A stretch of DNA of 64,000 nucleotides from a virus (IMGVR_UViG_3300017782_000002:32001-96000); one strand, 5' to 3'; numbered from the stretch's first letter, positions 3,670-64,000 are shown. Notes: generated by a model from the sequence alone, not told the origin. A program made the numbers and translations.

Positions 3670-4059
3670 ATGGACAATACTGATCCTCTAGATGGTTATG
3701 ATGATTTAAATGAAAGTGAACAGTACATCTTAGAACAAGAGTTACTGAATAGAGCTTTTACTAACTCTTTTAACCTTATAACTAAAAGGAAAAAAATGAA
3801 AGATATAGTTGAAGAGTCAGGTGGATTACTTTTATCACATGACCCTTTTTCTGATTTATTTCCTAATGATTTAATAAACATGTTAGATTTTTTTATAGAA
3901 GAGGAAGATTATGAAAAATGTGCAGAAGTTAGAGATTATATTAATGATTTAAAGCGTAAACATGCTAGAAAACAGAAAGAAGACACCACCAAAGAACTCA
4001 GTGAAGTTCTCAATAACATTATCAGAGGAGCAAAAAGCCGCAAAAAAAGAAATTCTTAG
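3670..4059 (+). CDS. Small protein with UvrB/UvrC (UVR) coiled-coil motif
   Basis: FFIEEEDYEKCAEVRDYI matches the E.E.YE.AA..RD.I UVR motif. Confidence 0.7.
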   Translation: MDNTDPLDGYDDLNESEQYILEQELLNRAFTNSFNLITKRKKMKDIVEESGGLLLSHDPFSDLFPNDLINMLDFFIEEEDYEKCAEVRDYINDLKRKHARKQKEDTTKELSEVLNNIIRGAKSRKKRNS

Positions 4060-4621
4060 TCACCCATTTAATTTTTTAGTTGGAAAAGCAGGTAGTGGTA
4101 AAACATTACTAGCTGTACAAGTTGCTCTTGATCAATTTTTTAAGCGTCAATACAATAAAATTATAATAACTAGACCTACTGTTTCTACGGAAGATAACGG
4201 TTTTTTACCTGGTTCAGAAAAAGAAAAATTAGAACCCTGGTTAGTTCCTATTAAGTCTAACATGAGAAAAGTATATAACAAACCTGAAAAACTTGAAAAA
4301 ATGGAAGATCAGGAAGAGATAGAATTAGTATCTCTAGCTCATTTTAGAGGCCGTACGTTTGATGACAGCATAATAATCATAGATGAGTTCCAAAACCTTA
4401 CTAAATCTCAATTCAGCATGGCTTTAGGTAGGTTAGGTAAAGGATCAATGATGATATTTTGTGGAGATTATCAACAAATAGATATTAAAGATGAAAATTA
4501 TTCAGCTATACATGAAGTTGCTAAAATAAAAGATTCTGACTACGTATACAAGTGTGTATTACAAGATAATCATAGACATAGAGCTATAGGTGACGTTTTA
4601 AAGTTACTAACTGGTTATTAA
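3962..4621 (+). CDS. phoH: PhoH-family ATPase
   Basis: Walker A GKAGSGKT plus ITRPTV, GFLPG, RGRTF, IIIDEFQN and GDYQQID, the full set of PhoH motifs. Confidence 0.95.
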   Translation: MLENRKKTPPKNSVKFSITLSEEQKAAKKEILSHPFNFLVGKAGSGKTLLAVQVALDQFFKRQYNKIIITRPTVSTEDNGFLPGSEKEKLEPWLVPIKSNMRKVYNKPEKLEKMEDQEEIELVSLAHFRGRTFDDSIIIIDEFQNLTKSQFSMALGRLGKGSMMIFCGDYQQIDIKDENYSAIHEVAKIKDSDYVYKCVLQDNHRHRAIGDVLKLLTGY

Positions 4622-4630
4622 TAAATATTT

Positions 4631-4671
4631 AGTTTAAACCTTTTATATTTAAACTTATTTTATTATCTTTG
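4631..4671 (+). promoter_or_regulatory. Promoter TATCTTTG with an upstream 8-bp inverted repeat (operator-like)
   Basis: AGTTTAAA (4631-4638)-N9-TTTAAACT (4648-4655); TATCTTTG at 4664-4671; ATG at 4702. Confidence 0.6.
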
Positions 4672-4701
4672 TACTATATTAATTAATAAAACCAAAGTAA
4701 A

Positions 4702-5082
4702 ATGGCAAAAAAATCTGAAAAGTCTGCTGAAGAATTAGCAGCTGAAGCATCAAAACTTGAGATGCAAGCAAAAAGAGATGAAATTACTGCATACTACAAA
4801 GATAGTATTAAACATCTTAAAGTTCAACAAGAATATGAAGCTCTATTGAAAGACATAGAAACTTCAAGAGCAGAAAGAATTCAAGCTCAAACATTTATAG
4901 CTAATGCAATGGCTCAACAACAAGCAGCACAACAAGCTCCTGCTCCTAATCCTGCTCCTACAGCAGATGCTGGATCTGGTAATGCTGTAGCTGGTACAGA
5001 CTGGGAAGCTTCTAGTGATAAAGCACCTCCAGCTGTAGATCCTGCTTTTGCAAACGCTGCAAGAAAGTTGAAAACCACTTAA
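4702..5082 (+). CDS. Hypothetical protein, coiled-coil N-terminus and Ala/Pro/Gln-rich C-terminus
   Basis: Clean ORF with A-rich leader; low-complexity QQQAAQQAPAPNPAP tail. Confidence 0.8.
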   Translation: MAKKSEKSAEELAAEASKLEMQAKRDEITAYYKDSIKHLKVQQEYEALLKDIETSRAERIQAQTFIANAMAQQQAAQQAPAPNPAPTADAGSGNAVAGTDWEASSDKAPPAVDPAFANAARKLKTT

Positions 5083-51914: not shown

Positions 51915-54900
51915 ATGGCAGAAGAAAATCAAAATCTGAATCAACCAATGCCTAATGATGTTATGACGGGAACTCCTGACGTAAGCATAGGTACAAACAA
52001 CTGGGAAGATATTAAAGATTCTTTAGTGACAGGTTCAGAACCTGTAGATAGTTATGAGATAGAAGGTTTAGAAAATGCTGTAAAATTGCATAACATGGTT
52101 TCAAAATTTCCTGTTATACAGTCTACAGTTGCAGATGAACCAACTGCTGAAAGCGCAAGAGATGAAATTCTTGGTGGCGTTGTAAATCAGGTTATGGGTA
52201 ATATTGCAAGAACAGGTTCTCCTAATGAAGTTCAACCAGTGCGTTTTGGTTTAAAAAGTTCTAATTTTGATAGGTATTATAATCATCCAAAATTTAATGA
52301 ACTAGGATTTCATCCTTATGCTGATAATGAATTAAAATATAATGAAACATCTTCATGGTGGGATGAAAACAAAAGAGCAAGAGGTCAATTCTTAAACGTA
52401 TTTTCTACAGGCTTCTTAAGTACTTATAAATCTTTAGGTGATCTTATGGCAGGTAATTATTTATCTGGAGACCAAGAGTCAGCAGAAAATTTTGCTGATG
52501 CAATGAGAATAGGTAATTCAACTCAAGAAGGTGCTGGTGCTTTCTTTAACAATCTATTAGTAAACTCTGGTTATACATTTGGTATAATGGCTAACATAGC
52601 TGTAGAAGAACTTGCATTAGCTGGTTTAGAGTTAGCAACTTTTGGTGGTGCTACACCTTTAGTAGCTAGTAGAACTGCATACAATGCTGTTAGAGGTGGT
52701 AAAGCTATAGATAAAATGTTTGATGTTGGTGACTATTCTAATAAAAGTAGGAAGATGTTAAACCAAATGAAAAGTCTTGATTGGACAAAAGATTTTTGGC
52801 AAAGGGGTGGAAAATGGGCATCTAATGCTTTAACACCTAATACATATAAAGCATTAAAAAATATTAATAGTGTACAAAATGGAGCAACTTTACTTTCTAA
52901 CTCAGCTAAAGTAGCTAAAACATCAGGAGCATTATATAGAGATTTTAGAGCTGTTAACCTTGCTATGGCTGAATCTAAGTTAGAAGCAGGTATGGTTACA
53001 AATGATTTGATAGATGAATTATATCTTGAGTTTGTTAATAAACATGGTCGTGCTCCTGTAGGTGATGAGTTAATGAAAATAGTAAACAAAGGTGATGAAG
53101 CATCTTTTGTAACTACAATGTTAAATGCACCTGTTATATATTTCTCTAATGCAATTGTATTTGATACTATGCTAAGAGGTTTTAGAGGTACAGGTTCTTT
53201 ATTAGCTGCAGCACAAAAAGGTATAGGTAGTAGAGTATTAAAAAGCTCTGCTAAACAGATGGGTAAGAATGGTAGCAAGGCTTTTTATGATGGAGGTAAA
53301 ACTGCTTATAGAAGATTTATAAACAAAGGTCTTTCTGGTAATTTAAAAACATTTGCAGGAGCAGCATTAAATTATGGTCAAGCAAACATTGTAGAAGGTT
53401 TTCAAGAACTTACACAAGAAGGTATTGCTGTAGGTGCAAAAGATTATTACCGTAATTTATATAAAGACCCAATGGCTGCAGGTTTAGATGCTATAGCTGC
53501 TTCAACATATGCGGGAGCCAAATCACAAATGTCTGGACAAGGTTTTGAAGTATTTATGTCAGGTTTCTTAATGGGCGGTCTAGTAAGAGGACCACAAAAA
53601 TTAGTTTTTGAAAAAGGACCTGAATGGTATCAAAAGAAAACAGATCCTGAAGGATATGCAGAATATCAAAAAGCTAAAGAAGATTACATAAAAGAAACAG
53701 TAGATGTTCTTAATGAAGTATATGAAAACCCAGAAGAGTATTTCCACCCAGATAAAATTAATGCGTTAACACAAAAAGAGGTTAATGAGTCTTTGTTTTC
53801 TTCAACTTTTGCAGAAGACGCATTATCTTTTATGGATAAAAAAGATTCTGGAGTATTTAAACATTTATACACAGTTGTTGCTGCAGGTAAAATGCATGAG
53901 TTTAAAGGTCAAATGAAAGATTATCTGCAACTTGATGAAAAAGGATTAGCTGAAGCTTTTCCACATGCTACAAGTGAGGAAATAAAATCTGGAAAGACAA
54001 GAGAAAGAATTGAAACTATGTTAGATAGAATGGATAACATAGAAAAAAATTATTCTGAACTTAATGATAAAATAATAAATCCTTTTAACCCTAAGAAACA
54101 TAAGAAAGGAACTAAAGAACACTTTGAAGAAGCAATAAAAGCACAAGCATTTAATCATGCAAAAATGCTAGCAATGTTCACTAGAAATAGTTTTGAAAGA
54201 GCTTTAGAAAGATCAAATGAAATATACACAGAGTTGTCTAACAATCCTGTATTAGCTAAGATGGATGCTAATGATATTTCTGTGCTTGCTGACACAGCAC
54301 AGCTTATTCAAGAAATAAGAATATTAAAATTAGATATTAAAAATACAACTACACCAATTGAAGGTGAAGGTAAAATAACATTATCTGGAGAACAAAAAAC
54401 ATTACTTGAAAAGAAGAAAAAGAAATTAGAACTATTACAAAATTATTTTGGTACATTATCTGATCCTGAAAATATAGAAAAGTATGAAGCACCTGTAGGT
54501 AAAGCAGAAGAAAGCGAACAAGATGCTGAGTTTAATAGACTGTCAAATATAATAACAGGAGATGCAATTAAAAAAGTTAGAGAAGATGTACTAAGTACAA
54601 AAGTTATTACTGATGAAGTTTCTGAAAGATTAGTAAAGTATCAAGCTGGTACTGCAAATCCATTTGGTGTTTTTGATATAAACAATCAAGACAAATTAGA
54701 AGAGGTTGTTATGCCTTATCTAAATGAAATTGCTGGTACTACTAAAGATAATTTTATAAAGTATGATGATGTTAAAGATACTATTATAAAACTTATAGAT
54801 CACAAAGCATTAAAAGGTAGAGCAGAAGACTATAACAGAATAGTTAAAACAATACTAAACCCTGAGAATCTTGAAAATGTTTCTGAAAAAATTGCAATAG

Positions 54901-57900
54901 TATTTAAAGAACTATTCTTAGAGAACAAACGTGACGTTAAAGAAAGAATGAAAGCTCACGTAGCTCAAGAAGAAAAAATATCATTCTTAAAAAACTTGGC
55001 AGAATACGGAATATATCCAGATGCAGAACAAGCAGAAACTTTCTTAAAAGGAGGAGAAGCTCCCTTTGAATATTTAACAGAAGAAGGTGTACTAACACCA
55101 GACAGCAACTTAGAACTATCTGAGAAAAAAGATGAAATATTAGGTCATTACTTAAATCTTAGTGGCAATAAGATGCAAGGTGATAAGAAAAAAGAAAAGA
55201 AAGAAGAAGAAAAATCTGAAGAAAGTGATCCTTATAACTTTGAAAACACACACTTTGAAGAGAGTGAAGATGCAGAAGAAATTTCTGAAGGCTCTTTAGG
55301 TAAATATTTAGGTAACCGTTATGGAGACGCATACTTAGTTAAGAAGCACAAAGAATACTTAATTAGTAGAGAAGGAAAAAAAGGTAAAACATTAACAGAT
55401 CATGCTGAATGGTTAGCAGATCCAGTATCACTTAAAGCAAGAAAAGTAGAAAGTGGAATTAATAAAATACACGATAACATTTTTGTTGAAGAAAAACTTG
55501 TAGGTACATCTGATAAAACTTTTTATGGATGGTTAGCTACTATGCAAGGAGATCAAAGAGTATTAGACATTTTAAGAAGCGTTGATATTAGCATGTCAGA
55601 TATTCTAGAAGAAGTTGAAGACAGATCAGAAACTAAACAAAAAGTAGCTCCTTCTAAAGTTGAGTATAAAGTTGTAGAACAAACATACACAGATAAAGAT
55701 ACAGGTGAAAGATTTAAAACTTTTAATGTAGAAGATGATAAAGGTAATGTTGTAAACAAAAAACCTTTTAATAGTAAAAAAGAAGCTAGCTCTGAAAAAA
55801 GAACTATAGAGAAAAATAAAAAAACAAAAAAAGCTGAAAGTGCTGCTTTTACTTTTGCAGGAGTAGAATATAAAAAAGGTGATATACTTGTAGATCAAAA
55901 TGGAGACAAGTATATGGTATTCTCTACACCTAAGATGGTAGAAGATAATGATAACATATACATTAAGAAGTTAGATAAAATTTCTAGCAAGCTTAAAAAA
56001 GATAAAATGTTTTTAGATGAAACTTCTTTTAAAGAAATGAACCTAGAAACTGTGTCAGAAGAAAGCTTAGACTATAGAAACAGAGCTAGTAAAATTAAAC
56101 CACATGAACCGTTAACTATATTCCCTATATATAATAGAGATATAGTAAACAGAGATGATCAAATAGAAGAAGGTGTAACAAGATTACAAAATACATTAAG
56201 AAATTTAACTCCAGAGCAATCTAAAAAAATAACTTTTAGAGTTAGTCCTGGACCTAACTGGTTCCGTGCAGAAACAGAAGAGGCAAAACAAAACTTTAAA
56301 GAAGCTGTAGATGCTGTAGAAAATGAATTAATTAAAAGACATGGTCAAAAATGGCAAGTTGAAATTCAATTAAATGGAGAAACAATTGGTTTCTTTCAAG
56401 GACCTACCACACTAAAGCTAGTAAATAGAAAAGGGCAAAACATAAACCCTATGGAGATTACTGAATCTCAAGTACAAGATATATTTAAAGTATATAAAAA
56501 TCAAAAAATAGAAGATGTTACAAAACAAGTAAGAGATAATTATGTACAAGCTTATGGTATCTATGATAAGATAGATAAGTTAATGGAAGGTGTAGAGGGT
56601 GCTGAAGTCTTCTCACAAAAAGATTTATCTGTTAATGTAAACATAACTGATGGTGCAATGTCTATATCAGAACCAGGAGAAGGAGTAAGCTTTAAAGACT
56701 TAGATCATAATTCATTAGCTTTTGTAAATAAAGAAGATCTAATAGATCCTAATGAAAAGCCTTATTATATATTAGATTACAATAGACAATATAAAGAAGA
56801 CGGGAGTTTACCTACAAGTAAAGTAGAATTTAATGTTATAACTAATGTTAAAATAAATACACCATCAAGACAAAGACTTAAAGAAGAGACTAGAAAATAT
56901 GAAAATAAATTTAGTCCTAGAAAAAGATTTGGTAAATATATTGCTCTTGTAAATTTACCTAATGGTAGATCTGCTTATGTTAATCTTATTCCGTCAGCAA
57001 TGACTGAACAACAAGTTACAGGCTTGTTTACAGAAATGCAAAACAAATCTATAGATACTACTGAAAATAATATTGAAAATGGTGAAGTAAAAGCAGTAGG
57101 ATATAATAGAGCTTATAACAAAGACTTACAAACTAAAGTGTTTATAGGTGCTACACCAGGAGTTTATCTTGAAATGAAATTATCACAAGATGGTTCTTTT
57201 AGAATAGACTATTCTGATCTGACTATAAAGAAAGGAGCACCCTTACAAAAAGGTACTTTTCTAATTAAGGCTAAAGCATTCCAAGAGTTAAATGACATAC
57301 AAGAAGTATTAGACTCATTAAACAAAGAATTGTTTGGTAGTGAAAGTCCAGTAGAAGGTAAAGCACACATTACATTTGAAAGTTTTAGAAATGCTGTACC
57401 AAAAAATCCTACTATTGCAGACATACAAAATATGTCTACACAACTTAATAAAGAAGTTAAAAAAGATATAAACTTTTCTTTGTCATCTACAGACAACATT
57501 CATGTAACAAAGAGAAAGTTAGCTAAATCAGCACCAAAAGAAATAGCTAAAGATGCTGAGTCAATGACTACAGAAGAAAAAATGGAGTCATATAGAAGTG
57601 ATCATCAAAACATTGATCCAAAGATATTAGAAGACATTGCAAAAAAACAAAATGCAAACAAAGAACTTACAGATTTAGAGCAAGCTATAGTTGCTCAAAA
57701 CTTAGATGTACTTGCTGGTTTAAGACTAAAGTTTGCTACAAAACCTGTTTCTCAATCTAATACGGTAAGTGAAGCTACAAATCAAAACGCAGTTAGTGAG
57801 ATTAGAGATTTAACTGAAAAGATAAAAACAAGGAAAAGACAAATAAGAACAGAAAATAGAGAAAACCCTGAGAATGCAGAAAAATCTAACAGAGATATAA

Positions 57901-60900
57901 ACAATATAGCTGCAGCACTTATAGCTGCTGATCCTGAATTACAACTTCTAGAAGCTCAATTAAGATTAGCAAAAAGTAAAGCTAATAAAATAATAAAAGG
58001 TTTTGATGGGCATGATATAGAAGACATAGAAACATTTACAAGATGGGTGCAAGATAACCTGCCTGCAGAAATAAGAATTAATGTTGAAGACTTAACAACA
58101 AAACTTAAAGACGGTTATATTACTGTAGGTCAGTTCTATATGCAAATGAAAGATATTTCTAAGGGTATAATGGGACTTGAAGGAGTTATAACAGTAACTA
58201 AAAATTCACCATTTAAATATCATGAAGCATTTCATTCTGTATTTAGATTATTACTTACAGATGCAGAGATTAAAAAATATTTAGGAATTGCTAAAAAAGA
58301 AGTAAAAGCAAAACTTAAAACAGAAGGAACTACTTTAGATGCAGCTCTTGAAAACATGAGAAAGCAACATGTAATGTATGCTGAGATGTCTAAAAAAGCA
58401 TTAGAAGAAAGATACTATGAAGAGTATCTTGCTGATGAGTTTGAAAAATTCAAAATGGATCCAAAAAGTACAAAGACTGATTCTGAGAATAAATCAATGT
58501 TCCAAAAAATAATAGACTTTATAGTTGAGTTACTTACTGAGTATAGACCTAGACAACTTAATTCTTTATTTAGTGATATAGATTCAGGTAAATATAAGAA
58601 TGCTTCTATAAAAGAAAATAGGTTTACAGATTCTTATGAAGGAGATGTAGCTTTTAAACTTGAATTATATGATCCTAAGTTTATTGAAAGAAAATCAACA
58701 GACGGTGAATCTAAACTAAAGCAAGTAAAAAACTACATGCCTTCTGATCAACTGCATGAAATAGTTTCTGGTATTTCTAATTTATATACAGGTAGATTAG
58801 ATAAAGCAGAAGCACCTATTGATGCTAAAATACTTCTTGATGAAACTATTAATGATTGGATTGAAATGTATAATCCAGAAAGAGACTTTTATCATGATAG
58901 AGGTGTATGGTATGATGACAATGTAGATGAGCTTACTCTTTTATATGAATCTCTTTTAGATCAGATTGGTGATTTAAGAGAACTTGTTAAAAGAAATATA
59001 TCTGAGTTTGCTGGAATAAATATTGAAGATGCTGATTATACAGAAGTTAATGAAAAAGAAACAGGAGATTATGATAAGTCTGCTGATATGTTTGGTGGTT
59101 ACTCAGGATTACCTAAACGTTTAAGACATTTAATATCACAAACTACTTTAGAAGAAGAAGATAGATACGGTAATAAATATGTAAATACTGAAACAAAAGA
59201 ACCACTTATTGTAGGAGTTAATCCAGAGTACGTGTACAATGGACTATTAAAGGTTCTTGCTAATACGCCTAATGACCTTAAGATGTTTCAGAAAGCTTGG
59301 TCATTTTCACAAAACAATCACCATACTAAAGAGGTTATAAAAAACTTATTTAGAGAAATAGGCATATTAGAATTTGCACAAAGCGGTGAAATGTTTAAAG
59401 AAGATGCTGAAATACCATCACAAGTAAATAACTCAGCATTATATCTTTCATTTATAAAAGGATTTAGAAAATATAGAGTTGACAATATATTTGCACATAC
59501 TGATACAGATACTGGTGTTACACATTTATATGCAGCAAATAAAAAAGATGATGCTCATGTTACTGTTCAACAATGGGCTGCAGACTTTAACAGACAATAT
59601 CCTAAATTAAAGCTAGAAAACTCATTAGAAAGAGAAGAAGCAAAAGATGCCTTAAGTGAATTAACTTCAATGTTAAAGCTTACATCAATACCTGAGACTT
59701 ATAATTTAGCAGTAGAAGTACAAGCTGTAGCAGAAATATTAAAAAATGTTGCTGGTATGAACATACACCAAAATTATATATTATACAGTATATATGATGG
59801 TCTAACTACTTTAACAGAAGATCAACAGGTTTTATATGATGCATACTCTTTTGTTGATCCTATGCAAGTTGAAGAAATATCATACATTAGACAATCTTTA
59901 GTTTCTGGTGAAAATTTATATTTAGATAACCAAACTGTATATGAATCTGAAGAAGCAGACGCAAAACCAGAATTTGCAAAAGGTGGTGTAAAAGGAAGAC
60001 TTAGAAAACTAGCATTAAATAATTCACAATTTGATGAAGCAGTTGGTGCCTCAACGTTTATAGATTCAGAAGGAAACAGAAGATATGCTCACCAAGATCC
60101 AACACTACACTTAGAAAAAATTGCTGAGATGGAAGGTGCAGAATATATAAACGACAAATTAACAGAAGATGTGTTTTTTGAAAAGAACATGTTATTAAAA
60201 GATCCTAAGTTTCAAGCAATGGTTGCTGCAGGTCAAGTTAGAGCTTTACGTATTGTTGGAAGCAAAGAGGGTGCTTTAAGATTAACTGAGTCAGGATTGT
60301 CATCAGAGCGTGGAAGAATGGTTGGAGATACAGGTGTAAGTTATGGTAAATCAAAACCAAGAGAATTTGCATTAGACATGATACATGCTTACCTTTTTAA
60401 CTATAACAGACAATCTCCAGGCAAGACACAAATTGGTACAGATGATAAAGGTTTAGAATTTGCAATAGCTCCTACAAACATAAGAGTTATAGAAGCAAGT
60501 AATACTGGAGATTTTGTAGCAGTACCTGTACATAAGATGCTAAACAAAAGTAAACAAGGTATAGAGATTAATGATAACGCTCTAAACATGTTTATAAATG
60601 AATTAAAAATTGAATTTGATAGAGCAAGAAAGTTTCACATTGATGAGCAAGAAGGTGTAGAAAATCTAATAGATAAAAAAGAAAGATTAGGTAAGTTACA
60701 TACTACTTATACCCTGTTGTCTAAATTAGTTACAGAAAACCGTAATATTAAAACAGAACTTCCTGGTATAGGTAAAGACCAAAGAGCTGCAATCACAGAC
60801 GGAAAACAAAACATATATTTATCTACAGTTGCAAAAGCAGTAACCTCTAATTTATCTCAAGACCAAGAAGGTGTAGTTGATATAGATGGTGAAATGTTTG

Positions 60901-63900
60901 TAATGAAACATAAAGGTAAATTAAATTTTAATGAGCTTTCAGATGAAGAACAAACAAACTTAATAGATAACTACCGCCCTAGCATTACAGCTATAAAAGA
61001 TACAAAAGGAGCAAAACAATATAAAGTAACAATAGACGGAATTGATAATTATACATATAGTTCTGATACACAAAGATTCTTTAAAGGTTATAAGGACATG
61101 GTTATCTTTGAATTTGAAAGACTTGAAGATTCTGAAACAGTTGAAACTAAACTTGTTGAGTCAGAAGAGACAGGTGAAATAATTGCTGATGCTGTACAAA
61201 AAGATTTAACTGCTGTACAAAGAGTAGAGCAAGTAGCTGAATTTGGTATAGAAGGTGTAGAAGAAAAAGATTTATTTGATACTGTATTTGCAGAAATAGG
61301 AGGTAGAGAAATTGTAAAAGACAGATTAATGGATGAAGTAAATGAGTTTATCCTTACTCTAAAAGAAATAAAAGCATACCAAAAAGTATCTAAGGAAATA
61401 AGAGAAGGTCTTGGTGTATATAAAACAATAAGAAAAGGTACAGACACTGCATACGATAGTTCAGATAATGAATACTATATGGATCTATACAACCTTAGAC
61501 CAGGTGATCCTGATTTTAACCTTGCACAAATATATCTTAATAACTATATAAACACAAAGTCTTTTAATCAACTTATATTAGGAGATCAAGCATTATCTCT
61601 CAAAGATTTTATTGATGCAGTAAAAAGAGCTAAGATGCAAAACGGTGCTGGACCGTCAGCAGCAACAGAAATCTATGATGAAGATCTTGGTGTTATGCAT
61701 AAGGTAGACCGTATGAGTGCGGTTGTTCATGAAGATTTTGAGTATGAACAAATGTTTAATGAAATATATAAGTCTGATAAAGATAGAGCTAGAGCAAAGG
61801 GAGACTTAGCTGATGGTCAGATATACATAACTGAAAAAACATTAAGATATATGTTATTTGGTTTTGGTAAATTAAACAAGGCACAGTCACAAGTTTTAGA
61901 TGACATTAAAGAAGGTAACATAGCAAAAATAAATGAAGAGTTTTTTGGTACTGGTAATAAACTAAGCCATAAAAAATTAGATATGATTGCTAACTCTTTA
62001 AAGATTGTTTACGGAGATGGTAAAACTTTCTTAAAAATGTCTGCTACACTGTTATCTAAAAATGCATATTCTGTACAGGACGTAGATGGTAATTGGGTTG
62101 CGAGAGAAGGAAGAGAAGATTTACACAACTTAAGAGTTAAATTAGAACAATTTGAAGAAAAAGAATGGGCAGAAGGTAGAGGTACTCTTAGTATGTCAGT
62201 ACCTAAATCTGCTTCTAAGATGTTTAATGAAAACATTGTACCTGACAAAATTGATATAATAAACCAAACTCCTATTGATCCTAAATATACAATGGATTTA
62301 TCTGCAGAATACATGAGACTGCAAATGATTAATCCTTCTAATAAAATAGAAATTGTAGATGCTAGACAAATTAAAAATCTTATTACAAGTGAACAAAGTT
62401 TAGATGAGACTGTTATACTTAACGGTCAGGAAGTTTCTGTTAGAGATTTAGTTATTAAATATCACAAATTAGCAGGTGATAAACTTATGAATGAGTTTTT
62501 TGCACAAAGAAATTTAACCTTTACTTGGTCTAATGCAATAAGAACATTAGATAAAGTAAAAGAGAATAATAAATTTATACCAGAAAATTCAAAAATAGAC
62601 GGTGACTTAAGAGCATTTGTTAAATATGCAATAGCAGGTTTAGAAGCTTCACAAGCTAAAACACAAATGTTATCATATTTTGAAGTAGATGAGTTTGGTA
62701 ATCCAAAGTATAATTTAAATGGACCAATGACTCATGATAAATTTGAAGAACTATTCTTAGCATATTTTTCTAAAGGAATTTTAGCAGGAAAACAACCAGG
62801 TATATCTGCAGCTTTAGTATCAGACTTTGGTGTATACACAGTAAAGCAAGTAGAAAAAATAGATGAATTTGGTACACCAATAAAATGGAAAGTTATTAGA
62901 AGTAACGATTGGGAAAATCTTAAAAGACAAAATCCAAACAAGTACAAAGCTGTAAAACAAAGAGAAAACTTAGGAGAACACGTATTAAAAGTTGGTGACT
63001 TTTATCTTGATAGATTAAGAAGTAACGTTCAAGAATATAATGATAAAGGTGAGTTAACAGGATTAACTTATACTGAATTTATGATGCCTCCTCATTTTAA
63101 ATCACAGTTAGATAATAATATAGCTTGGAATAAACCATTGCCAGATTCTATTGCTAAGATGTTTGGTATAAGAATTCCTTCACAAGATAAACACTCTGCA
63201 GTTAATTTAAAAATGGTAGATTATCTTCCTGTATTTATGGGATCATCTGCAATGTATGCAAGAGAACTTATAGAATTATCTGGAGCTGACTTTGATATTG
63301 ACAAACTTTACATGCAAATGAAAGAGTTTTATTATAACGGTAAAGACTTTGTTGAGTATGGTAAAGCTAAAGATGACAAAAGTGGTTATAAAGAATATGT
63401 AAGATGGGTATTAGAAAACGCTACTAAAAGCTCAGCTATTAGACAAGCCTTAACAAGATGGAATGATTCTCAAAAAACAACACAACCTCTTGGAATAAGC
63501 GCTGAACAATATCTTACATTAACACCAGAAGAGCAACTTGCAGCAAGAAAAGAAATAACAAAATCTTCTAATAAAATTGTTATGGATATGCTAGATGCTG
63601 TTATGCACAGTAATGTAGCTCTTGATTCTGTTATGATTAACAAAATGTTTGACAGAGCAGAAGGTTTACCTGAAGCATTAGAGTCTATTGGTTTACCAGT
63701 TACTCTTGCTGACTATAAAGCATTTAAAGAAGCTAACAACAGAGAACCTTATACAGCTGCAATTAATAACGAGTTGTTAGATGTTAAGTTTGCTTTGTTA
63801 GGTAACAAAGGTATTACACAACCAAAAGAAGGAAGACATATTGGTTTATATTTTGAGCCTGCTGTTACTACACCTTTGTCTGACACAGAAAAACAAGGTG

Positions 63901-64000
63901 GTTTAGAATGGTTAAGAGAAACAATAGGAGATGTTCTTAAAGTCACTGGAGAAAATCAGCTAGATGTTGATAGTTTACTGGGACAAATAGAAGCATGGAC
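51915..64000 (+). CDS. Giant virion polyprotein: ejection-like N-terminus, zincin motif and crAss-like virion RNA polymerase (partial, >4028 aa, runs off the window)
   Basis: ATG at 51915. Manually translated motifs all lie in this frame: EGFQELTQEG (53394), HEAFH (58221-58235), EEYLADEF (58419), VKRAKMQNGAG (61620), DGQ (61812), GIRIPSQD, and SGADFDIDKLY (DFDID at 63288-63302, the phi14:2 gp66-type catalytic motif). I did not check every codon; its absence from the ORF track is consistent with no in-frame stop before 64000. Confidence 0.93.
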   Translation, partial: MAEENQNLNQPMPNDVMTGTPDVSIGTNNWEDIKDSLVTGSEPVDSYEIEGLENAVKLHNMVSKFPVIQSTVADEPTAESARDEILGGVVNQVMGNIARTGSPNEVQPVRFGLKSSNFDRYYNHPKFNELGFHPYADNELKYNETSSWWDENKRARGQFLNVFSTGFLSTYKSLGDLMAGNYLSGDQESAENFADAMRIGNSTQEGAGAFFNNLLVNSGYTFGIMANIAVEELALAGLELATFGGATPLVASRTAYNAVRGGKAIDKMFDVGDYSNKSRKMLNQMKSLDWTKDFWQRGGKWASNALTPNTYKALKNINSVQNGATLLSNSAKVAKTSGALYRDFRAVNLAMAESKLEAGMVTNDLIDELYLEFVNKHGRAPVGDELMKIVNKGDEASFVTTMLNAPVIYFSNAIVFDTMLRGFRGTGSLLAAAQKGIGSRVLKSSAKQMGKNGSKAFYDGGKTAYRRFINKGLSGNLKTFAGAALNYGQANIVEGFQELTQEGIAVGAKDYYRNLYKDPMAAGLDAIAASTYAGAKSQMSGQGFEVFMSGFLMGGLVRGPQKLVFEKGPEWYQKKTDPEGYAEYQKAKEDYIKETVDVLNEVYENPEEYFHPDKINALTQKEVNESLFSSTFAEDALSFMDKKDSGVFKHLYTVVAAGKMHEFKGQMKDYLQLDEKGLAEAFPHATSEEIKSGKTRERIETMLDRMDNIEKNYSELNDKIINPFNPKKHKKGTKEHFEEAIKAQAFNHAKMLAMFTRNSFERALERSNEIYTELSNNPVLAKMDANDISVLADTAQLIQEIRILKLDIKNTTTPIEGEGKITLSGEQKTLLEKKKKKLELLQNYFGTLSDPENIEKYEAPVGKAEESEQDAEFNRLSNIITGDAIKKVREDVLSTKVITDEVSERLVKYQAGTANPFGVFDINNQDKLEEVVMPYLNEIAGTTKDNFIKYDDVKDTIIKLIDHKALKGRAEDYNRIVKTILNPENLENVSEKIAIVFKELFLENKRDVKERMKAHVAQEEKISFLKNLAEYGIYPDAEQAETFLKGGEAPFEYLTEEGVLTPDSNLELSEKKDEILGHYLNLSGNKMQGDKKKEKKEEEKSEESDPYNFENTHFEESEDAEEISEGSLGKYLGNRYGDAYLVKKHKEYLISREGKKGKTLTDHAEWLADPVSLKARKVESGINKIHDNIFVEEKLVGTSDKTFYGWLATMQGDQRVLDILRSVDISMSDILEEVEDRSETKQKVAPSKVEYKVVEQTYTDKDTGERFKTFNVEDDKGNVVNKKPFNSKKEASSEKRTIEKNKKTKKAESAAFTFAGVEYKKGDILVDQNGDKYMVFSTPKMVEDNDNIYIKKLDKISSKLKKDKMFLDETSFKEMNLETVSEESLDYRNRASKIKPHEPLTIFPIYNRDIVNRDDQIEEGVTRLQNTLRNLTPEQSKKITFRVSPGPNWFRAETEEAKQNFKEAVDAVENELIKRHGQKWQVEIQLNGETIGFFQGPTTLKLVNRKGQNINPMEITESQVQDIFKVYKNQKIEDVTKQVRDNYVQAYGIYDKIDKLMEGVEGAEVFSQKDLSVNVNITDGAMSISEPGEGVSFKDLDHNSLAFVNKEDLIDPNEKPYYILDYNRQYKEDGSLPTSKVEFNVITNVKINTPSRQRLKEETRKYENKFSPRKRFGKYIALVNLPNGRSAYVNLIPSAMTEQQVTGLFTEMQNKSIDTTENNIENGEVKAVGYNRAYNKDLQTKVFIGATPGVYLEMKLSQDGSFRIDYSDLTIKKGAPLQKGTFLIKAKAFQELNDIQEVLDSLNKELFGSESPVEGKAHITFESFRNAVPKNPTIADIQNMSTQLNKEVKKDINFSLSSTDNIHVTKRKLAKSAPKEIAKDAESMTTEEKMESYRSDHQNIDPKILEDIAKKQNANKELTDLEQAIVAQNLDVLAGLRLKFATKPVSQSNTVSEATNQNAVSEIRDLTEKIKTRKRQIRTENRENPENAEKSNRDINNIAAALIAADPELQLLEAQLRLAKSKANKIIKGFDGHDIEDIETFTRWVQDNLPAEIRINVEDLTTKLKDGYITVGQFYMQMKDISKGIMGLEGVITVTKNSPFKYHEAFHSVFRLLLTDAEIKKYLGIAKKEVKAKLKTEGTTLDAALENMRKQHVMYAEMSKKALEERYYEEYLADEFEKFKMDPKSTKTDSENKSMFQKIIDFIVELLTEYRPRQLNSLFSDIDSGKYKNASIKENRFTDSYEGDVAFKLELYDPKFIERKSTDGESKLKQVKNYMPSDQLHEIVSGISNLYTGRLDKAEAPIDAKILLDETINDWIEMYNPERDFYHDRGVWYDDNVDELTLLYESLLDQIGDLRELVKRNISEFAGINIEDADYTEVNEKETGDYDKSADMFGGYSGLPKRLRHLISQTTLEEEDRYGNKYVNTETKEPLIVGVNPEYVYNGLLKVLANTPNDLKMFQKAWSFSQNNHHTKEVIKNLFREIGILEFAQSGEMFKEDAEIPSQVNNSALYLSFIKGFRKYRVDNIFAHTDTDTGVTHLYAANKKDDAHVTVQQWAADFNRQYPKLKLENSLEREEAKDALSELTSMLKLTSIPETYNLAVEVQAVAEILKNVAGMNIHQNYILYSIYDGLTTLTEDQQVLYDAYSFVDPMQVEEISYIRQSLVSGENLYLDNQTVYESEEADAKPEFAKGGVKGRLRKLALNNSQFDEAVGASTFIDSEGNRRYAHQDPTLHLEKIAEMEGAEYINDKLTEDVFFEKNMLLKDPKFQAMVAAGQVRALRIVGSKEGALRLTESGLSSERGRMVGDTGVSYGKSKPREFALDMIHAYLFNYNRQSPGKTQIGTDDKGLEFAIAPTNIRVIEASNTGDFVAVPVHKMLNKSKQGIEINDNALNMFINELKIEFDRARKFHIDEQEGVENLIDKKERLGKLHTTYTLLSKLVTENRNIKTELPGIGKDQRAAITDGKQNIYLSTVAKAVTSNLSQDQEGVVDIDGEMFVMKHKGKLNFNELSDEEQTNLIDNYRPSITAIKDTKGAKQYKVTIDGIDNYTYSSDTQRFFKGYKDMVIFEFERLEDSETVETKLVESEETGEIIADAVQKDLTAVQRVEQVAEFGIEGVEEKDLFDTVFAEIGGREIVKDRLMDEVNEFILTLKEIKAYQKVSKEIREGLGVYKTIRKGTDTAYDSSDNEYYMDLYNLRPGDPDFNLAQIYLNNYINTKSFNQLILGDQALSLKDFIDAVKRAKMQNGAGPSAATEIYDEDLGVMHKVDRMSAVVHEDFEYEQMFNEIYKSDKDRARAKGDLADGQIYITEKTLRYMLFGFGKLNKAQSQVLDDIKEGNIAKINEEFFGTGNKLSHKKLDMIANSLKIVYGDGKTFLKMSATLLSKNAYSVQDVDGNWVAREGREDLHNLRVKLEQFEEKEWAEGRGTLSMSVPKSASKMFNENIVPDKIDIINQTPIDPKYTMDLSAEYMRLQMINPSNKIEIVDARQIKNLITSEQSLDETVILNGQEVSVRDLVIKYHKLAGDKLMNEFFAQRNLTFTWSNAIRTLDKVKENNKFIPENSKIDGDLRAFVKYAIAGLEASQAKTQMLSYFEVDEFGNPKYNLNGPMTHDKFEELFLAYFSKGILAGKQPGISAALVSDFGVYTVKQVEKIDEFGTPIKWKVIRSNDWENLKRQNPNKYKAVKQRENLGEHVLKVGDFYLDRLRSNVQEYNDKGELTGLTYTEFMMPPHFKSQLDNNIAWNKPLPDSIAKMFGIRIPSQDKHSAVNLKMVDYLPVFMGSSAMYARELIELSGADFDIDKLYMQMKEFYYNGKDFVEYGKAKDDKSGYKEYVRWVLENATKSSAIRQALTRWNDSQKTTQPLGISAEQYLTLTPEEQLAARKEITKSSNKIVMDMLDAVMHSNVALDSVMINKMFDRAEGLPEALESIGLPVTLADYKAFKEANNREPYTAAINNELLDVKFALLGNKGITQPKEGRHIGLYFEPAVTTPLSDTEKQGGLEWLRETIGDVLKVTGENQLDVDSLLGQIEAW

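Follow-up and report, generated by a model that had tools for sequence, protein, structure and literature searches.

A probable fusion of the cargo proteins gp47 and gp50 in a 4,887-residue protein of a crAss-like phage

The end of a 64,000-nucleotide stretch of virus DNA (IMGVR_UViG_3300017782_000002:32001-96000, hereafter the window) is occupied by one very long open reading frame, which raises the questions of whether it encodes a single protein, which functions that protein combines, and whether the combination is new. The window was taken from a single virus contig of 119,816 bp in a metagenome assembly, where it spans bases 32001-96000; no terminal repeat was detected on this contig. The product of the frame, referred to here as the giant, is likely to be a virion cargo protein of a marine-type crAss-like phage, formed by head-to-tail fusion of the counterparts of gp47 and gp50, which are separate proteins in phage crAss001. 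Giant fusions of this type are normal for the clade and belong to a kind that has already been described for crAss-like phages.

An open reading frame search identified a single frame on the + strand, 51915..63998, which encodes 4,028 residues and is still open at the 3' end of the window. From 51915 to the window end, the search gave no other long frame on either strand. In the full contig, the frame is stop-free over 4,887 codons, for a product of ~560 kDa, and ends at the window-equivalent position 66578. The DNA has a G+C content of ~31%, and the phage uses the standard code; it is excluded that a frame of 4,887 codons arose by chance in DNA of this composition. The parts and motifs of the giant within the window are the following:

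51915..64000, + strand: window part of the giant open reading frame, residues 1-4028, from the open reading frame search and the contig translation; it continues to 66578.
51915..52214, + strand: N-terminal leader, residues 1-100, poorly conserved.
52215..54404, + strand: N-terminal module (N-module), residues ~101-830, the best conserved part outside the polymerase core.
52611..52667, + strand: most hydrophobic 19-residue window, residues 233-251, Kyte-Doolittle mean 1.44.
53394..53420, + strand: EGFQELTQE, residues 494-502, family motif EGxQE[LI]xQE.
53553..53579, + strand: FMSGFLMGG, residues 547-555, a (nearly) invariant Gly/Phe motif.
54405..57881, + strand: middle region, residues 831-1989, weakly conserved, with Lys/Glu-rich linkers (for example, 1086-1125 and 1269-1308).
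57882..58814, + strand: zincin-like block, residues 1990-2300, matching crAss001 gp47 residues 2154-2295.
58221..58235, + strand: HEAFH, residues 2103-2107, HExxH motif.
58419..58442, + strand: EEYLADEF, residues 2169-2176, EE..A..F motif with a candidate third zinc ligand.
58815..64000 and beyond the window, + strand: polymerase module, residues ~2300 to ~4600, of the type of crAss virion RNA polymerases.
63288..63302, + strand: DFDID, residues 3792-3796, catalytic motif.

The module map is based on an alignment with 30 full-length homologues, which are collinear with the giant along the whole protein. Conservation is high in residues ~100-830, low in residues 831-2000, and high again in residues 2000-2250; it dips in residues 2251-2300, a stretch that forms the junction between the zincin block and the polymerase part. 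Conservation of the polymerase type extends over residues 2300-4550, with a maximum at 3751-3800, and is followed by a variable acidic tail (residues ~4550-4887) that ends in KKCYI. The middle region, residues 831-1989, has no family match.

An independent assembly encodes a protein of 4,899 residues that is 96.6% identical to the giant across its full length, which makes an assembly artefact very unlikely. The idea that an assembly or sequencing error joined two or three genes is hardly credible for further reasons, namely the absence of a stop over 4,887 codons of AT-rich DNA and the organization of the relatives. The N-module motif, YHExxH, and GxDFDxD are found in one chain of 4,390-6,270 residues, collinear throughout, in 94 of the 120 best homologues. 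Furthermore, of the best 150 N-module representatives, 36 are giants with 4,000 residues or more, and each of these contains DFDxD. The original prediction, made from the window sequence, had proposed a single chain of more than 4,000 residues with DFDID at residue ~3792, and had named an in-frame stop or an assembly error as what would overturn it. The position of DFDID was exact, the downstream sequence extends the chain to 4,887 codons, and the frame is continuous in both assemblies.

Residues ~2300 to ~4600 are, by homology, a virion RNA polymerase of the type represented by phi14:2 gp66 and crAss001 gp50. A tblastn search matches crAss001-type genes annotated as 'putative RNA polymerase' with an E-value of 2e-13, and profiles of the clade score 45 bits against phi14:2 gp077, the GenBank entry of gp66, and 69 bits against crAss001 gp50, with shuffled controls reaching at most 11 bits. 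A profile of five sequences matches the phi14:2 gp66 structure (PDB 6vr4_A) with an E-value of 1.3e-27 and 99.6 bits, in agreement with the polymerase type that had been predicted within the fusion. The match consists of two collinear stretches, gp66 residues 921-1140 and 1300-1709, which take in the bridge helix and trigger loop as well as DFDID (1361-1365), in the numbering of Drobysheva et al. (10.1101/2020.03.07.982082). The size of ~2180 residues that had been quoted for gp66 is also correct: gp077 is 2,180 residues long and has DFDID at position 1361. The sequence GADFDID is nearly invariant across the clade, and pairwise similarity to phi14:2 gp66 is limited to ~60 residues around DFDID. 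Given the homology to 6VR4, the giant would be expected to have the two double-psi beta-barrel fold. An N4-like polymerase, which is of the T7-like single-subunit type, was considered and rejected: among the polymerases of the PDB, the gp66 family alone was matched, and no T7/N4-type Pfam match was obtained.

The block preceding the polymerase contains a zincin-like arrangement of residues. The region around HEAFH matches crAss001 gp47 residues 2154-2295 (blastp E-value 2.7e-7, profile score 41 bits). No variation was seen at H2103, E2104, H2107, or E2169/E2170 among 62 relatives, some of which are distant and have the protein split into two genes. The EE..A..F motif lies ~62 residues after HExxH, and both motifs are also present in crAss001 gp47. 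A profile of the block has one weak match in the PDB, the Pro-Pro endopeptidase 6fpc_A, with an E-value of 0.02 and both motifs aligned. There is good motif evidence that the block is zincin-like. The protease that had been predicted as part of the fusion, with no position given for HExxH, corresponds to this block, and its activity is putative.

The front of the giant is related to gp47 as well. A 68-sequence profile of the N-module, in which EGxQE[LI]xQE is invariant in all 68 aligned relatives, matches crAss001 gp47 residues 423-676 with an E-value of 1e-7 and the 2,110-residue gp47 counterpart of IAS virus with an E-value of 7e-11. Since both the N-module and the zincin block match gp47, residues 1 to ~2290 are read as the gp47 counterpart; this half of ~2,290 residues compares with 2,341 residues for crAss001 gp47. 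The N-module profile matched nothing in phi14:2 or in the gut lineages p-crAssphage, crAss002, cr3_1, and cr60_1. Clade profiles of residues 1-2000 did not score above shuffled controls against crAss001 gp47 and gp49 or phi14:2 gp076 and gp078-082, and a tblastn search with the first 2,400 residues found no match among GenBank phages. The motif EGFQELTQEG had been called typical of ejection or channel cargo. It could not be traced to any described family, and its invariance is confined to the family of the giant itself.

Is such a fusion new? The polymerase core matches at least 478 protein clusters, with proteins of 2,687-8,553 residues. The 36 giants among the best N-module representatives are the closer relatives, and 91 of the same 150 representatives are stand-alone proteins of 1,150-2,399 residues, most of them 31-36% identical. 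The sister group, in which the N-module is a separate protein of 1,150-2,400 residues, is larger than the fused group. In three split-form genomes, an N-module gene encoding 1,326-1,559 residues is followed by a gene encoding 3,152-4,289 residues with HExxH and DFDxD; by arithmetic, the gene break maps to residues ~1330-1400 of the giant. The protein gp27 of cr60_1 (NC_055891, Suoliviridae) has 4,494 residues, and its single chain holds both HExxH (2047) and DFDxD (3568); the protein encoded downstream of it has 1,473 residues and starts with MTC. The only stops within the frame of cr60_1 gp27 (L189:2567-16051) are 55 TAG codons, a pattern consistent with reassignment of TAG; its RefSeq annotation is only 'nuclear pore complex protein-like protein', despite the presence of HExxH and DFDxD. 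In p-crAssphage (BK010471), gp44, with 4,070 residues, is annotated as 'RNAP catalytic subunit fused to unknown RNAP subunit' (RNAP, RNA polymerase), and gp45 as 'RNAP associated protein fused to zincin protease'. We infer that the further subunit fused in gp44 is the gp49 counterpart. The proteins crAss002 gp33 and cr3_1 gp24 have 4,245 residues each. The layouts of the cargo genes are the following:

crAss001: gp47, gp50, and gp49 as separate genes.
This phage and cr60_1: gp47+gp50, then gp49.
p-crAssphage: zincin protein, then an RNA polymerase protein of ~4,070-4,245 residues, read as gp50+gp49.
Sister group: N-module, then the rest with the RNA polymerase, then gp49.

Papers on crAss-like phages mention fused polyproteins and genes encoding up to ~6,000 residues. 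The proposal that functions divided among several genes elsewhere are joined here is therefore borne out, as the N-terminal part is a separate gene in crAss001 (gp47) and in the split-form relatives. The novelty claimed for the fusion is not: the 94 homologues mentioned above carry the same fusion, and similar ones are present in GenBank and in publications. The original prediction had said that its novelty would be lower if such fusions were standard in the nearest clade, and they are.

The reading of the giant as virion cargo draws on its counterparts. Proteins gp47, gp49, and gp50 of crAss001 are virion proteins according to mass spectrometry (PMC10172136), and tandem mass spectrometry underlies the annotation of their phi14:2 counterparts as structural proteins. 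The phi14:2 polymerase is carried in the virion and transcribes early genes (10.1101/2020.03.07.982082). By homology with phi14:2 and crAss001, the giant would be packed in the capsid, would leave through the tail ahead of or together with the DNA, and would refold in the cell to transcribe early genes. In this clade, a peptide bond would stand in for the probable tether between gp47 and the RNA polymerase of other lineages. Several observations weigh against this reading. Searches of Pfam and PHROGs with the whole giant gave no usable match, and single-sequence phmmer searches of the PDB with the whole protein and with the 501-residue core did not recover gp66, which was reached by profiles alone. 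AlphaFold models are of low confidence, with predicted local distance difference test (pLDDT) scores of 55 for the zincin block and 58 for the N-module. The latter model, of a kind that the original prediction had proposed to inspect, is all-helical, and a Foldseek search with it against the PDB matched no solved fold.

The properties of the N-module invite the question of whether the N-terminal half forms a channel across the cell envelope, through which the polymerase is threaded while tethered to it. The N-module family has 935 representatives (50% identity, E-value up to 1e-3), and the module is always located at residues ~80-870, at the N-terminus of its protein in every case. Between fused and split clades, the N-module is 29-31% identical over ~700 residues, whereas the polymerase can be aligned over ~55-95 residues around DFDxD (BLAST; L090, L091, and L092). 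Judged by these alignments, the N-module is slower-evolving than the polymerase enzyme. Its consistent position at the head of the protein, together with the absence of an N-terminal cysteine in any of 127 family members, and its conservation would suit a channel, as would the fact that it holds the most hydrophobic segments of the protein. Two hydrophobic segments had been predicted in this part, and both were confirmed: LALAGLELATFGGATPLVA (residues 233-251) and FMSGFLMGG (residues 547-555) are among the most hydrophobic windows of the giant. Nevertheless, they do not reach transmembrane grade. The usual threshold for the Kyte-Doolittle mean over 19 residues is ~1.6. The highest value in the giant, on this crude scale alone, is 1.44, which argues against a classical transmembrane helix. 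The low-confidence model without a fold match also speaks against a channel, and five other large genes just upstream could provide channel proteins. The authors of the crAss001 study suggest that the channel is formed by gp45 and gp46, and they class gp47 as RNA polymerase-associated (PMC10172136). A channel role for the N-terminal half can be put forward as a hypothesis from position and conservation, but it is rather unlikely.

The termini of the giant and of the following protein suggest how the cargo proteins may be held together. The giant contains a single cysteine in 4,887 residues, at position 4885 in the tail KKCYI, and the next protein, of 1,797 residues, contains a single cysteine at residue 4 (MARC); the mean cysteine content of the open reading frames of at least 100 residues in the genome is 1.3%. 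The facing cysteines are encoded at window-equivalent positions 66567-66590 (contig 98567-98590), where the genes meet in the junction KKCYI-TAAtg-MARC with a 1-nt overlap. The possibility that Cys4885 is a by-product of the overlapping ATG was rejected, because both cysteines persist in relatives whose genes are separated by a gap or overlap differently. The pairing at the break between the giant and the next gene is kept in 10 of 10 relatives examined. The same rule, by which a C-terminal cysteine faces a cysteine at residues 3-8 of the next protein, also holds in phi14:2, crAss001, the split forms, p-crAssphage, cr3_1, and cr60_1. IAS virus fits the rule if its split RNA polymerase frame is read as one protein, and crAss002 fits if an internal MSC is taken as the start of translation; for MT835547, the C-terminal cysteine alone is clear. 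The annotated start of crAss002 gp33 (L187:8612-8730) is probably too far upstream, and the internal methionine gives MSC, as in p-crAssphage gp44 and cr3_1 gp24. A cysteine is present within the last six residues of 83 of the 91 stand-alone N-module proteins and within the first ten residues of none of the 127 family members; the junctions of fused genes contain no cysteine.

A disulfide of this geometry, Cys1715-Cys5, has been resolved between the ejection proteins gp27 and gp26 of cyanopodophage A4 (PMC12002296), and virions of crAss001 contain inter-subunit disulfides. Cys4885 and Cys4 probably form a disulfide tether, which would turn the giant and the gp49-like protein into one thread of ~6,680 residues that is headed by the N-module. 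A broader proposal is that crAss cargo proteins in general are joined end to end by such disulfides, exit the capsid as one thread with the N-module first, and separate in the reducing cytoplasm, and that gene fusions provide the same link as a peptide bond; its chances appear evenly balanced. The replacement of a disulfide by a peptide bond would explain both the cysteine-free internal junction and the retention of Cys4885 alone. Against a tether stands its need for an oxidizing step and for termini that meet inside the capsid. No description of an end-to-end cysteine tether of crAss cargo proteins was found in the literature searched. In p-crAssphage, gp39 and gp37 (L183:24204-25471), ~2 kb from the RNA polymerase block, are annotated as a thioredoxin and a truncated thioredoxin, which may matter if the cargo proteins are disulfide-linked.

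Separate proteins linked by disulfides would part in the reducing cytoplasm, so the fused form may need another route of separation. It is conceivable that the giant is a self-processed polyprotein, in which the zincin block cuts the chain and thereby frees the polymerase from the gp47-like protein, at maturation or after entry. The invariance of HExxH and of the downstream EE..A..F is consistent with such cleavage, and so is the position of the block ~185 residues before the junction of the gp47 and RNA polymerase parts, followed by the poorly conserved residues 2251-2300. However, no cleavage-site motif was found in the giant, and the zincin fold of the block is itself putative. The virion RNA polymerase (vRNAP) of phage N4 has an HExxH subdomain and yet functions as a single chain (PMC13434306). 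The zincin motif of phi14:2 belongs to a separate protein, downstream of the RNA polymerase, and a fixed role in cleavage in cis is therefore not obvious. Self-processing is a possibility to be taken seriously, although it is not the favored one, and the giant is preferably regarded as a cargo protein that arose by fusion of gp47 and gp50.

Some relatives of the giant (P0101, P0012, P0018, P0047, P0050, and P0094) have additional enzyme domains inserted at fixed sites, which correspond to residues ~815, 3090, 4596, and 4822 of the giant. The inserted domains are an AlkB-type dioxygenase, ART-PolyVal (PF18760), NADAR/YbiA (PF08719), a PolyA polymerase with HD, an AAA_33 kinase, and DUF7831, and they look like variable injected effector cargo. 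The giant of the window has none of them. Membership of the polyvalent-protein family (Pfam PolyVal, LPD) was considered and rejected, as the giant has no Pfam match to LPD, MPTase-PolyVal, or effector domains; the one lead in the Atlas, a weak one to LPD22, concerns 12% of one cluster.

The surrounding genes identify the contig, by homology, as that of a crAss-like phage. Genes upstream of the giant match PHROGs of the crAss-type large terminase (TerL), portal, and major head protein, and TerL shares ~25% identity with the terminases of Crassvirales and of phages that infect Flavobacterium and Cellulophaga. Five large genes directly precede the giant (window 30206-51906, + strand) and encode proteins of 2,516, 1,316, 1,349, 961, and 1,047 residues. 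The 2,516-residue protein is the only one of the five with PHROG matches (virion structural protein); a PHROGs search with the other four and with the downstream gene gave no match. The 1,316- and 1,047-residue proteins contain no cysteine, the 1,349-residue protein contains one, and the 2,516-residue protein contains 45. The sequence GG[AT]LPK[FY] occurs three times in the 1,349-residue protein, and neither the giant nor the next protein has the tag 'GG.LPK'. The next gene, first listed with 1,801 residues, encodes 1,797 residues from the MARC start. It matches crAss001 gp49 with a blastp E-value of 1e-24 and a profile score of 156 bits, and is by this homology the gp49 counterpart.

With the giant, a known class of proteins gains one member, which comes from a large environmental clade. 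The points at which the genes are fused or split in the different lineages make the module boundaries of the crAss cargo block readable, and they reveal the N-module to be a distinct and very well conserved unit at the head of every chain. This map bears on a question raised in the 2026 study of N4 (PMC13434306), namely how the three crassvirus RNA polymerase-associated proteins relate to the N-terminal domain (NTD), core, and C-terminal domain of a single-chain ejected polymerase. If the cysteine rule reflects real disulfides, it offers a simple way to test how ~0.75 MDa of protein is put in order before ejection.

Among the known systems, phi14:2 gp66 (gp077, PDB 6VR4) shares with the giant DFDID, a collinear catalytic core, and the rule of terminal cysteines, and it is also flanked by giant virion proteins, one of which contains HExxH. 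By contrast, gp66 is a stand-alone protein of 2,180 residues, and phi14:2 has its HExxH in the N-terminal part of the protein encoded downstream (gp076, residue 245), whereas that of the giant precedes the polymerase. The giant is collinear with crAss001 gp47 followed by gp50, which contains DFDxD, its next gene is gp49-like, and the cysteines of crAss001 predict the same chain order, gp47-gp50-gp49. However, gp47, gp50, and gp49 of crAss001 are encoded by three genes, with gp47 on the opposite strand, and the corresponding junction in the giant is free of cysteine. Phages p-crAssphage, crAss002, and cr3_1 differ from the giant's phage in keeping the zincin protein separate, next to an RNA polymerase-containing protein of ~4,070-4,245 residues. 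The terminal cysteine geometry of A4 gp27/gp26 matches that of Cys4885 and Cys4 of the next protein; the likeness noted is one of geometry, and A4, which infects Anabaena, is a T7-like podophage without a virion RNA polymerase. By analogy, the closest functional counterpart outside the family of the giant is N4 vRNAP (gp50, ~3,500 residues, Schitoviridae), an ejected single chain that has a likely membrane-active NTD, a polymerase, and an HExxH subdomain and is thought to cross the tail as flexibly linked subdomains (PMC13434306). Its order is NTD-RNAP-HExxH instead of N-module-HExxH-RNAP, and its polymerase is T7-like with a single barrel; because of this difference in fold class, the likeness is an analogy and not membership. 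The giant and cr60_1 gp27 have the same type of fusion and the same pair of cysteines, and they differ in that cr60_1 reads TAG as a sense codon.

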